Part shown: positions 36,237 through 47,696 of the stretch, piece after piece
Position numbering within the stretch: the stretch's first letter is position 1
How the letters are laid out: every line of letters starts with the position of its first letter
IMG/VR virus record: IMGVR_UViG_3300037507_003370
Coordinates: 142,292 to 206,291 of that record
Length of the DNA: 64,000 nucleotides
From: a virus
Taxonomy: Duplodnaviria > Caudoviricetes
Strand: one strand, 5' to 3'
Notes under the pieces: generated by a model
Database searches by the model: none
The model's input: only the letters and a program-made list of their open reading frames with translations
What the model was told of the DNA's origin: nothing
Position numbers and translations under genes: made by a program

Positions 36237-36633
36237 TTTTCCAATCCCCTTTTAGAAATTCTTCTCTGTTTGAATAGAGAGGTATTAGTCTATCATCCTT
36301 GTCATCAAACCTATTATAGTGCAAAGTTAGGTTGTATAGATCATGTCGGTCATTTATTAAACCATAAGCAACTGGCTTGCTAAAAATAAGATTGATTTTT
36401 TCTTTAAGAGCAACCAATTCTTTTTCACAACTTAGCCAACGATTGTTATCATCAGCGCTATTTTTATTAGCATTGAAAGCATCTTGTGCTAAATCTCTTT
36501 TGGCTTCTCGTAACTTTTCTAATTCATTCCTGGCATTTAATACTGTGAATCTTGTCAAATTCCAACGTCCAGTATTTATTGCTGTTTCACAGCACTGAAT
36601 TAAATAGTCTAGTGGATTAGAATTTTCATTCAT
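36217..36633 (-). CDS. Hypothetical protein
   Basis: 138-aa ORF. Confidence 0.55.
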   Translation of the reverse strand: MNENSNPLDYLIQCCETAINTGRWNLTRFTVLNARNELEKLREAKRDLAQDAFNANKNSADDNNRWLSCEKELVALKEKINLIFSKPVAYGLINDRHDLYNLTLHYNRFDDKDDRLIPLYSNREEFLKGDWKSGKLSK

Positions 36634-36847
36634 TGTGGAATCCTATCTTAAACTTTTCTGGCATAACAACTTCAATAGCATTAGGAGCAAAGTGTTCGGT
36701 ACAATAACTACGTCCGTTCCACCAACCACACTTGTAACTAACAGAATTGTCTCCAAAAATATTTATTTCTTCAATTGTTCCATAAACATCATCGGTCAAC
36801 TTAACCCTACTGCCAATCTTATATAGTTCTAAAACATTTTTGCTCAT
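36626..36847 (-). CDS. Small SH3-like phage protein
   Basis: YKIGSRVKL..GTI..Y.C.WW pattern; AGGA RBS. Confidence 0.55.
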   Translation of the reverse strand: MSKNVLELYKIGSRVKLTDDVYGTIEEINIFGDNSVSYKCGWWNGRSYCTEHFAPNAIEVVMPEKFKIGFHNE

Positions 36848-36880
36848 TGGTTTTCCTTTCGATAATTATCATTCTACAAA

Positions 36881-37150
36881 TAGGAGCGGTGGGAGTCGAA
36901 CCCACACTTGAAGGATTTTCTTACCACTATAACTTTTGTTACCATTTCTGTTTGTGGTCTGGACTTTATCTTAACCATAACTTTCGTTTTAGGTTCCTGC
37001 CGTCAAGTCTCTACACCTTCATATTTCTATGCTTGGCTCGGTATTAGCAGTTAAGCCTTCACCGAATTTGACAGGTTCTACATTAAAAGTTTCCCTTTAT
37101 GCACTCAAATTAGTTCAAGTCCTTTGTCTCTGCCTTTGGACTACACTCCC
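36881..37150 (-). tRNA. tRNA-Leu(UAA), split by a group I intron (exon 1 37150-37117, exon 2 36919-36881)
   Basis: Spliced 73 nt: acceptor GGGAGTG/CGCTCCT, A73, anticodon arm AAGGA-CTTAAAA-TCCTT, T-arm GTGGG-TTCGACT-CCCAC; CCA not encoded. Confidence 0.9.
36920..37116 (-). ncRNA. Group I self-splicing intron (197 nt, no ORF)
   Basis: P AAATTCGGTGAA, Q AATACCGAG, R GTGTAGAGACTTGACG, S AAGATAAAGTCC; U before the 5' splice site pairs with IGS GAGT; terminal G. Confidence 0.9.
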
Positions 37151-37605: not shown

Positions 37606-37633
37606 ATTCTAACATCTCTTATCGGCTTGTCAA
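37606..37633 (-). promoter_or_regulatory. Promoter TTGACA-N16-TAGAAT with CCGATA
   Basis: Read on the minus strand. Confidence 0.8.
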
Positions 37634-38182
37634 CTGGGCGACCTTGAATTTTTTCTCTCTGTCGCCAAATAGTTTCTGAATCTCTTTAAAACTGTACGGA
37701 GTGCCAAATCCAACCCCATCCCTTTTATTATCGACCCCCACATCAAGCGTAAAGCGTCCTAATGATTCATCCTCATTGTGAAGTCTGCCATGAACATGAC
37801 CATACAGCATCCAACTTTTACGATAACTTTTGTTCCATGCTCTCATAGGATAGTGAAATAGAATAATCTTTTGATTACAATGAATTATTTCTTTCATTAG
37901 TCCTATGGAAGAAAAATCTTTTTCACTAAATTTATCTTCGTTGTCGTGGTTGCCAAGAATCAAATGAATATCTTCACAAATTATTTGTTTTCGGTATTTC
38001 TTAGGATCACCACCTCTATGACAAAAATCTCCAAGAAAGTATAATGTATCACTTGGCTTAACAACACTATTGATATTATCAATAATGGTCTTATTCATTT
38101 CGTGAGTATCAGTGAATGGTCTTTTGCAATACCCCACAATATTCTTGTGTCCAAAGTGGGTATCAGAAATAAAATAAATCAT
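37619..38182 (-). CDS. Calcineurin-like metallophosphoesterase
   Basis: SDTHFGH, LGDF, GNHD, FHYP, GHVH. Confidence 0.9.
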   Translation of the reverse strand: MIYFISDTHFGHKNIVGYCKRPFTDTHEMNKTIIDNINSVVKPSDTLYFLGDFCHRGGDPKKYRKQIICEDIHLILGNHDNEDKFSEKDFSSIGLMKEIIHCNQKIILFHYPMRAWNKSYRKSWMLYGHVHGRLHNEDESLGRFTLDVGVDNKRDGVGFGTPYSFKEIQKLFGDREKKFKVAQLTSR

Positions 38183-46491: not shown

Positions 46492-46499
46492 AATATAAG

Positions 46500-46849
46500 T
46501 GGACTAGAGGGGAGTCGAACCCCTGTCCAGAATAAACATCAATATAAACTTCTACATCGTTAGTCTATTGTAATTCGGACACTAGACAAACCTAGAAGAA
46601 ATTATCTTCATCAGATCGGTTACGATCATTGTCTATGTTTTCGGGTTAGACTTCCTTATCAGATTTATCTGAGTCAACATGATTGGGTAATAAGGCCCAT
46701 ATAGCCCCACTCGTACCTAATTAATTAGGCAGCGAGAGCGAGATTTACTTCGCCAATTAACATTTTTTGAATAACTTTTATACTGGCCCGTTATTCAACC
46801 AGTCGATGCCGTCTATATCTATTTTACCTGTCGATACCTTTACTAGCCC
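46500..46849 (-). ncRNA. ssrA: tmRNA, one-piece, tag (A)GEVNLALAA*
   Basis: Acceptor GGGCTAG/CTAGTCC with G3-U70 and A discriminator; 5' GGTATCGAC; T-arm GGGGTTCGACTCCCC; tag ORF 46754-46725; CCA not encoded. Confidence 0.93.
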
Positions 46850-47620: not shown

Positions 47621-47696
47621 TAGGGCGAGTAGGAGTCGAACCTACCTATGAACACCTTATAAGAGTGTCGGATGCAACCGGCTTACCTTCCGCCCC
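47621..47696 (-). tRNA. tRNA-Ile(UAU) with atypical D-arm
   Basis: Acceptor GGGGCGG/TCGCCCT, A73, anticodon arm ACACT-CTTATAA-GGTGT, T-arm GTAGG-TTCGACT-CCTAC. Confidence 0.8.

Follow-up and report, generated by a model that had tools for sequence, protein, structure and literature searches.

How does a phage obtain a tRNA that reads UUA from a gene whose anticodon is split in two? The question is raised by a locus on the minus strand of the 64,000-nt stretch of viral DNA analysed here (the window). Positions 37150-36881 hold a tRNA(UAA) gene which is interrupted within the anticodon by a group I intron, and the pre-tRNA body is 270 nt long (ARAGORN, introns allowed). The source of the gene is an uncultured T4-like lake phage. 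No close relative among cultured phages was found by megablast of 20 kb; the rIIA-like protein is ~31% identical to that of enterobacterial T4-like phages. As far as the 64-kb window gives a view, production of Leu-UAA from this gene depends on a ribozyme, and the UUA decoder is made only after splicing. We read the locus as a functional phage gene whose tRNA reads UUA and is very probably a tRNA-Leu, and which contains a compact group I ribozyme lacking an endonuclease gene; the intron would splice itself out and the product would be charged with leucine. The probability of this reading is put at roughly 0.8. The parts of the locus are as follows.

36881..37150, minus strand: the whole interrupted tRNA(UAA) gene (ARAGORN with introns; alignment with intron-plus and intron-minus alleles).
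37117..37150, minus strand: exon 1, 34 nt, with the acceptor 5' strand GGGAGUG, U8 A9, the D-arm (3-bp stem), the anticodon stem 5' strand and C32 U33 U34 (ARAGORN; identical in the intronless alleles L322 and L337).
36920..37116, minus strand: group I intron, 197 nt, subgroup IC3-like, type Leu.3Ug, without ORF (RF00028, 60 bits; covariation in 58 homologues; missing base for base from L322 and L337).
37104..37119, minus strand: P1, in which C32-U33-U34 and the first intron base are paired with the internal guide GAGU (covariation).
37083..37100, minus strand: P2 hairpin, capped by the nearly invariant GAAA tetraloop L2; covariation is seen in each of its six pairs.
36996..37075, minus strand: domain closed by P3 (37075-37070 with 37001-36996); pairs changed on both sides.
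37065-37060/37043-37038, minus strand: P4, enclosed by P3; pairs changed on both sides.
37056-37055/37048-37047, minus strand: P5, enclosed by P3; pairs changed on both sides.
37037-37028/37023-37015, minus strand: P6, enclosed by P3; pairs changed on both sides.
36962..37009, minus strand: domain closed by P7, the guanosine-binding helix (GACU 37009-37006 with AGUC 36965-36962); invariant in 58 of 58 sequences.
36995-36986/36981-36973, minus strand: P8, enclosed by P7; covaries.
36920..36958, minus strand: 3' domain, consisting of a closing helix, P9 and the terminal G at 36920.
36958-36954 with 36927-36923, minus strand: closing helix ACCAC/GUGGU, which brings the terminal G to the core; covaries.
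36941-36930, minus strand: P9 hairpin, with L9 = AAAA at 36937-36934; P9 covaries.
36881..36919, minus strand: exon 2, 39 nt, with A35 A36 A37 A38, the anticodon stem 3' strand, the variable loop CAAGU, the T-arm, the acceptor 3' strand CGCUCCU and A73 (ARAGORN; allele alignment; survey of class I bodies).

ARAGORN in its default mode does not call the gene; the call appears once introns are allowed. Standard finders of this type miss split genes, and phage tRNA counts and codon analyses are consequently off. The joined exons form a 73-nt cloverleaf with the anticodon loop CU-UAA-AA, and no CCA is encoded (ARAGORN). Its acceptor stem is GGGAGUG/CGCUCCU, with a G1.U72 pair and discriminator A73. 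A 3-bp D-stem with a long D-loop, the anticodon stem AAGGA/UCCUU and the T-loop UUCGACU complete the body. The variable loop has only 5 nt (CAAGU), as a sequence-only reading of the locus had noticed; the long arm of class II bacterial tRNA-Leu is not present. The intron lies between U34 and A35 (CUU/AAAA) of a tRNA with anticodon UAA, which is the position that defines the type Leu.3Ug. That reading had likewise put the insertion after U34, and both the ARAGORN map and the intron-minus alleles bear it out.

The intron matches Rfam model RF00028 at 37126-36938 with 60.0 bits (threshold 50, E 1e-12, full model 1-253), and this is the sole such match in the window. The match ends before the true 3' end because the model does not cover the last helices. 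For comparison, the core strand GAAGGTGYAGAGACTNGACGG was scanned in public viral contigs (at least 119 loci) and in bacterial genomes. All cases were re-cut at CUU/AAAA, which gave 131 introns at the Leu.3Ug site (117 unique) among the matches listed. An alignment of 58 of these (A1) yields an RNAalifold consensus of 46 pairs, and compensatory changes among the 58 homologues are found in 30 of them. They span the anticodon stem, P1, P2, P3, P4, P5, P6, P8 and P9. The claim of a group I intron in a tRNA(UAA) gene at 36881-37150 was thus exact in its coordinates and agrees with model and covariation alike.

All helices from P1 to P9 are present. The wobble pair at the 5' splice site is U37117.G37106, and it is U:G in all 56 ungapped homologues; the terminal G before the 3' splice site is G36920. 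Both had been named from the letters alone. A UUU immediately 5' of the guide can pair with A35-A37 as a candidate P10. This P10 is read from the sequence; it is invariant and yields no covariation. P7, which is invariant partly owing to the search motif, is uninformative for covariation. Within the closing helix, a C-G pair has become U-A in 6 sequences, and the cyanobacterial version of the helix is UUCUC/GAGAA. GNRA tetraloops are expected on both P2 and P9 for docking in Leu.3Ug/IC3 introns; in the window, L2 is GAAA and L9 is AAAA.

The boundaries can also be taken from natural alleles. Syntenic relatives were found by BLAST of the surrounding 3 kb against fetched viral loci (alignment A2). 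At the syntenic locus, L086 (92% identical) and L115 carry the intron. Two others, L322 and L337, agree with the window in their flanking genes and in every base of the exons, with a gap of exactly 36920-37116 (197 bases); the intron is their sole difference from the window at the locus, with no gene added or missing. It is thus a discrete element which is present or absent among close relatives, and its boundaries are independently confirmed. The syntenic contigs L011 and L032 have the same intron lineage within a long-arm (class II) tRNA-Leu(UAA). When L011, L032, L027 and L099 are set beside the window, one syntenic locus is seen to carry a single intron lineage in tRNA-Leu(UAA) genes of both kinds, short-loop in some phages and long-arm in others; the tRNA class has here been exchanged in nature.

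The intron was described in the sequence-only reading as compact and free of a homing endonuclease. At 197 nt without an ORF it is compact, and no nuclease domain was found by Pfam or PHROG in the antisense ORFs of the intron or in the five neighbouring ORFs. Among the neighbours, a phosphoesterase at 37619-38182 is alone in having an annotation. Intron-plus loci showed no regulatory element peculiar to them, and a scan for promoters and terminators gave weak consensus matches only (9/12 at 37248-37220 and 11/12 at 37633-37606).

A small part of the stretch is present in six metatranscriptome runs. RNA-library contigs from four of them cover the tRNA with its intron and the upstream gene and none covers 36500-36870, a lack of contig cover which proves nothing. 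Contig X15 (198 nt) spans 36918-37112, almost exactly the intron; it is derived from a relative (10 mismatches), and its ends cannot show RNA ends. In X15 and X18, which come from two studies, exon 2 is joined directly to a related exon 1. Intronless alleles with the same junction are abundant in DNA, and these joins therefore do not show splicing.

The tRNA body is found in phages far more widely than the intron of the window might suggest. A pattern spanning the junction recovered at least 120 further viral contigs with an uninterrupted gene of the same short-loop body (65 unique). Intronless class I tRNA(UAA) is thus very common in phages, and the short variable loop, although correctly noticed in the window, is not tied to the intron. 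Among introns at this site, short-loop tRNAs occur in none of ~60 bacterial examples and in ~17 phage contigs among the matches listed. One intronless allele, which matches the mature tRNA of the window at 71 of 73 positions, has 89% identity over 73 nt to a gene of Prochlorococcus phage P-SSM7 annotated as tRNA-Leu; further matches are to genes with the same annotation in phages of Synechococcus, Pseudomonas, Lactobacillus, Bacillus, Vibrio, Streptomyces and other hosts. The short-loop tRNA-Leu(UAA) genes of P-SSM7, cyanophage P-RSM6 and Pseudomonas phage ZC03 share the tRNA body and the GenBank assignment as tRNA-Leu, and differ from the window gene in being uninterrupted.

Several features of the body point indirectly to leucine. 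Across 59 unique class I bodies, whose D-arm conservation is in part imposed by the pattern used to find them, A73 is found in 59, G1.U72 in 49, and the 15:48 pair covaries (A:U in 50, G:C in 4). The E. coli-type leucine identity set (A73, A14, A15-U48, G18G19 and U54-A58, as listed in PMC6614811) is present in full in the window tRNA; by sequence, these features are compatible with leucine identity. The acceptor stem GGGAGCG/CGCUCCU with A73 of the closely related class I tRNAs L115, L097 and L086 recurs unchanged in L062 and L063, which are class II tRNA-Leu genes of phages, and the acceptor stem of the window differs from it at one pair (U6.G67 for C6-G67). Taken as sequence, the product is very probably a tRNA-Leu. 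Charging of a type I tRNA-Leu by a bacterial LeuRS has a precedent in Streptomyces coelicolor tRNA-Leu(CAA) (Fan et al. 2019, PMC6614811). That tRNA and human mitochondrial tRNA-Leu(UUR) resemble the window tRNA in having a 5-nt variable loop, and LeuRS charging has been shown for them; anticodon and organism are different.

Codon usage gives such a tRNA ample work. UUA is the commonest leucine codon of the window (38.8% of Leu, 29 per 1000) at a GC content of 31.6%, and AUA is the commonest isoleucine codon (40 per 1000). The two tRNAs of the window, Leu-UAA and Ile-UAU, match these commonest Leu and Ile codons. In the T4-like cyanophage Syn9, scarcity of the Leu-TAA tRNA blocks translation of key phage proteins and the host becomes resistant (PMC11726456). 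As Leu-TAA supply limits Syn9, a UUA decoder is a valuable phage gene. The tRNA-Ile of the window has a genomic UAU anticodon and lies at 47621-47696. A phage tmRNA is found at 46499-46849 (RF00023, 95.7 bits; tag GEVNLALAA).

From what is known of the intron family, maturation of the tRNA may be pictured as follows. Transcription would give a precursor of ~270 nt, in which the anticodon stem stacks on the short P1 and the internal guide holds U34 in the U.G wobble. A free guanosine, bound by P7, would attack after U34. The terminal G (36920) would then occupy the P7 site, and the 3'-OH of U34 would attack before A35, so that the exons are joined and the loop CU-UAA-AA is restored. Host RNase P, 3' trimming and the CCA-adding enzyme would produce the finished 73-nt short-loop tRNA, which would be charged by host LeuRS and serve the phage's most used leucine codon. 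Spread and loss of the intron among the tRNA-Leu(UAA) genes of T4-like aquatic phages would occur through recombination between co-infecting genomes. For the intron itself, the likeliest role is that of a selfish or near-neutral passenger.

Other explanations of the locus have to be set against this one. The AAAA at L9 is unique to the window. In a census of the 131 introns at the site, 105 were scored directly as GAAA, and most of the 24 which could not be scored for L9 have GAAA too (so that nearly all relatives have it); one intron has CAAA, and L061 has GCAA. GAAA is also found in L086, the 92%-identical relative, and the RNA-library contigs of relatives which cover 36937 all have G there. 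L9 is the tetraloop that docks onto P5 in the Azoarcus and Anabaena model ribozymes of the subgroup, and the AAAA copy may for this reason fold less well. If splicing were impaired, the gene would be a tRNA pseudogene, or a poorly productive gene, on its way to loss. We consider such decay quite unlikely, since every other helix, P7 among them, is preserved together with L2, the U.G pair and the terminal G, and the exons, identical to those of intronless alleles, bear no mark of decay. The contact made by L9 is moreover peripheral, and ribozymes that lose one tetraloop contact usually stay catalytic but need more Mg2+. The AAAA is either a private mutation or a single-base assembly error. The intron could also have a protective role, in that it disrupts a DNA site in the anticodon loop which is cut by a free-standing or intron-borne endonuclease, and could spread through repair of the cut during co-infection. 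Collaborative homing of this kind is reportedly known for the psbA intron of cyanophage S-PM2, and both the polymorphism among syntenic relatives and the occurrence of one lineage in class I and class II bodies at one locus would fit. The searched ORFs hold no nuclease domain, whether within the intron, antisense to it or among the five flanking it in the window, and L322 and L337 differ from the window at the locus by the intron alone; this course of events is unlikely.

The sequence-only reading had gone further and proposed that the unspliced precursor hides the anticodon loop from host anticodon nucleases, or that splicing times the supply of the UUA decoder. It is true that Leu-TAA tRNA supply can decide the infection of a T4-like cyanophage (PMC11726456), and that phage tRNAs have been proposed to evade tRNA-targeting defences (PMC10264068). 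The locus lends this proposal no support, and we hold it to be highly improbable: the spliced loop CUUAAAA is ordinary and the same as in intronless alleles, so the mature product would gain no protection, and intron-plus and intron-minus forms alternate among close relatives, as they would for a dispensable element. A different objection concerns the amino acid. Nearly all bacterial tRNA-Leu belongs to class II, and the Streptomyces type I tRNA-Leu was not charged by E. coli LeuRS (PMC6614811); the short-loop tRNA(UAA) might then be uncharged or carry a different amino acid, and would act in recoding or as a decoy. We give this scarcely any credence. UUA codons in window genes align mainly with Leu codons of relatives (136 of ~200, from subject contigs which are mutually related, so that the counts are not independent). 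A class II tRNA-Leu(UAA) replaces the class I gene at the syntenic locus, and A73, G1.U72, A14 and A15:U48 are conserved and match the E. coli tRNA-Leu identity set (PMC6614811). What the failure of E. coli LeuRS does imply is that charging of a short-loop tRNA-Leu depends on the host.

The insertion site is that of the tRNA-Leu(UAA) intron of cyanobacteria and plastids (Kuhsel et al. 1990, as cited in PMC3984707), which was named Leu.3Ug by Williams (2020, bioRxiv 10.1101/2020.01.27.920355). The cyanobacterial introns and the window intron share the insertion CUU/AAAA after U34, the U.G wobble, the terminal G and an IC3-type core; in both, P2 and P9 are capped by tetraloops, P5abc is lacking, and the core strands (GAAGGUGYAGAGACUNGACGG) are near-identical. 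They differ in that the cyanobacterial examples fetched are 220-312 nt long and the window intron 197 nt, and in the closing helix, which is UUCUC/GAGAA in cyanobacteria and ACCAC/GUGGU in the window, where the intron is in a phage, in a short-loop tRNA and in an all-phage clade. The same site is used in many Proteobacteria, Acidobacteriota and other phyla (Williams 2020). The Leu.3Ug introns of Proteobacteria, Acidobacteriota and other bacteria (examples L123-L242) have the site, the fold and the guide region GAGUGC in common with the window lineage. They are longer and GC-rich, are found in class II tRNA-Leu only (none of ~60 bacterial examples has a short loop), and are set apart from phage introns at 99/96. 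The label 'cyanobacterial/plastid-type', which the intron had been given at the outset, stands as far as the shared insertion site is concerned. It is too narrow otherwise, as the site is widespread in Proteobacteria and Acidobacteriota and the window falls in an all-phage clade (100/96).

Other known introns resemble it in part. The intron of Azoarcus sp. BH72 pre-tRNA-Ile(CAU), of ~205 nt, is a bacterial model IC3 ribozyme without an ORF. It is like the window intron in its small size, its helices and its strongly similar P3-P8 core strands; it differs in residing in another tRNA, at another position of the anticodon loop, and is not known to have the extended 3' domain seen in the window. 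The group I introns of T4-type and other phages (td, nrdB, nrdD, S-PM2 psbA and others) are, like this one, phage-borne, self-splicing and patchy among relatives. Unlike it, all are in protein-coding genes, and many carry homing endonuclease genes. A 2014 review placed all phage introns then known in protein-coding genes, despite the many tRNA genes of phages (PMC3984707). 'Enigmatic' introns were later described in tRNA genes of Lak megaphages, whose authors stated that none had been reported earlier in phage tRNAs (Devoto et al. 2019, PMC6784885). Those introns likewise occupy phage tRNA genes but were not classified as group I, as the window intron is. Full-text literature searches, outside which most subscription journals lie, turned up no subsequent paper describing a group I intron within a tRNA gene of a phage. 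Judged from sequence matches, the intron type is nevertheless widespread in phage tRNA genes, and the window is one clear case out of many.

A tree was built from 104 unique introns at the Leu.3Ug site. The window intron belongs to a 9-row clade which is all phage (100/96), where L115 and L086 (the latter 96% identical) stand closest to it. This clade is part of a set of 50 rows in which phage and cyanobacterial Leu.3Ug introns come together, apart from those of other bacteria (99/96). A long branch of their own is formed by the cyanobacterial introns, and base composition differs between the groups; a phage-only clade is not rejected by the AU test (p 0.41). A quick tree had nested the cyanobacterial introns within the phage introns. 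This placement is no more than a lead, as long branches that meet were flagged in the careful tree and the AU p value was 0.41. Short-loop and long-arm tRNAs are mixed inside intron clades, and two intron lineages are each found in both tRNA kinds, so that intron and tRNA body have partly separate histories. One phage intron lineage, found in T4-like cyanophage contigs, has the guide region GAGCCU, as in cyanobacteria, which is again a lead only; no intron of this lineage was found in cultured cyanophages in the INPHARED set.

Phages had been suggested as a reservoir or vector of the intron. The first half of this suggestion fits the distribution, since 85 of the 122 motif sites examined in phage or viral loci lie in tRNA genes. 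The second half is a possibility only, since the AU test does not decide how phage and cyanobacterial introns are linked. A stronger form, in which phage tRNA-Leu(UAA) genes rather than cells would be a main reservoir of Leu.3Ug and the cyanobacterial (hence plastid) intron would share a recent pool with cyanophage copies, is tentative and on balance doubtful. If it were true, the 'ancient intron' of plastid trnL would have a history of traffic through viruses. Alleles with and without the intron, and short-loop and long-arm alleles sharing one intron, provide a natural system for studying spread without an endonuclease. The same alleles are useful for asking whether phages link the bacterial and cyanobacterial intron pools.

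The core motif is also found in tRNA genes which ARAGORN calls Pro(UGG), Lys(CUU), Lys(UUU), Arg(UCU), Met/Ile2(CAU) and Thr(UGU), where the splice sites are candidates (L009, L022, L039, L040, L041, L052, L059, L064, L084, L095, L104, L105, L112 and L116). Phage tRNA introns are thus not confined to tRNA-Leu. In Pelagibacter phage HTVC120P (L003), a stretch which resembles the intron core, below the RF00028 threshold, lies between P120_gp29 and gp30, both annotated 'capsid protein'. Its position suggests a related intron which splits a capsid gene.

Unannotated copies are present in GenBank phage genomes, including that of a cultured phage. In the jumbo Agrobacterium phage Atu_ph07 (L002, MF403008.1, about 112890-113251), a 278-nt group I intron interrupts a long-arm tRNA-Leu(UAA) at this very position. 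No tRNA is annotated there, the 'hypothetical protein' AUZ94936.1 overlaps the locus, and the RF00028 score is below threshold. An uncultured 735-kb phage (L001, LR756501.1, about 190243-190533), among the largest phage genomes known, has an unannotated long-arm tRNA-Leu(UAA) with a 205-nt intron which belongs to the same family (RF00028, 56.6 bits). In Synechococcus phage S-SRM01 (MW015081.1, 33608-33669), a match resembling short-loop tRNA-Leu has no annotated feature and is syntenic with the cyanophage-like contig L012; the RefSeq record of this phage has an HNH endonuclease near the match.
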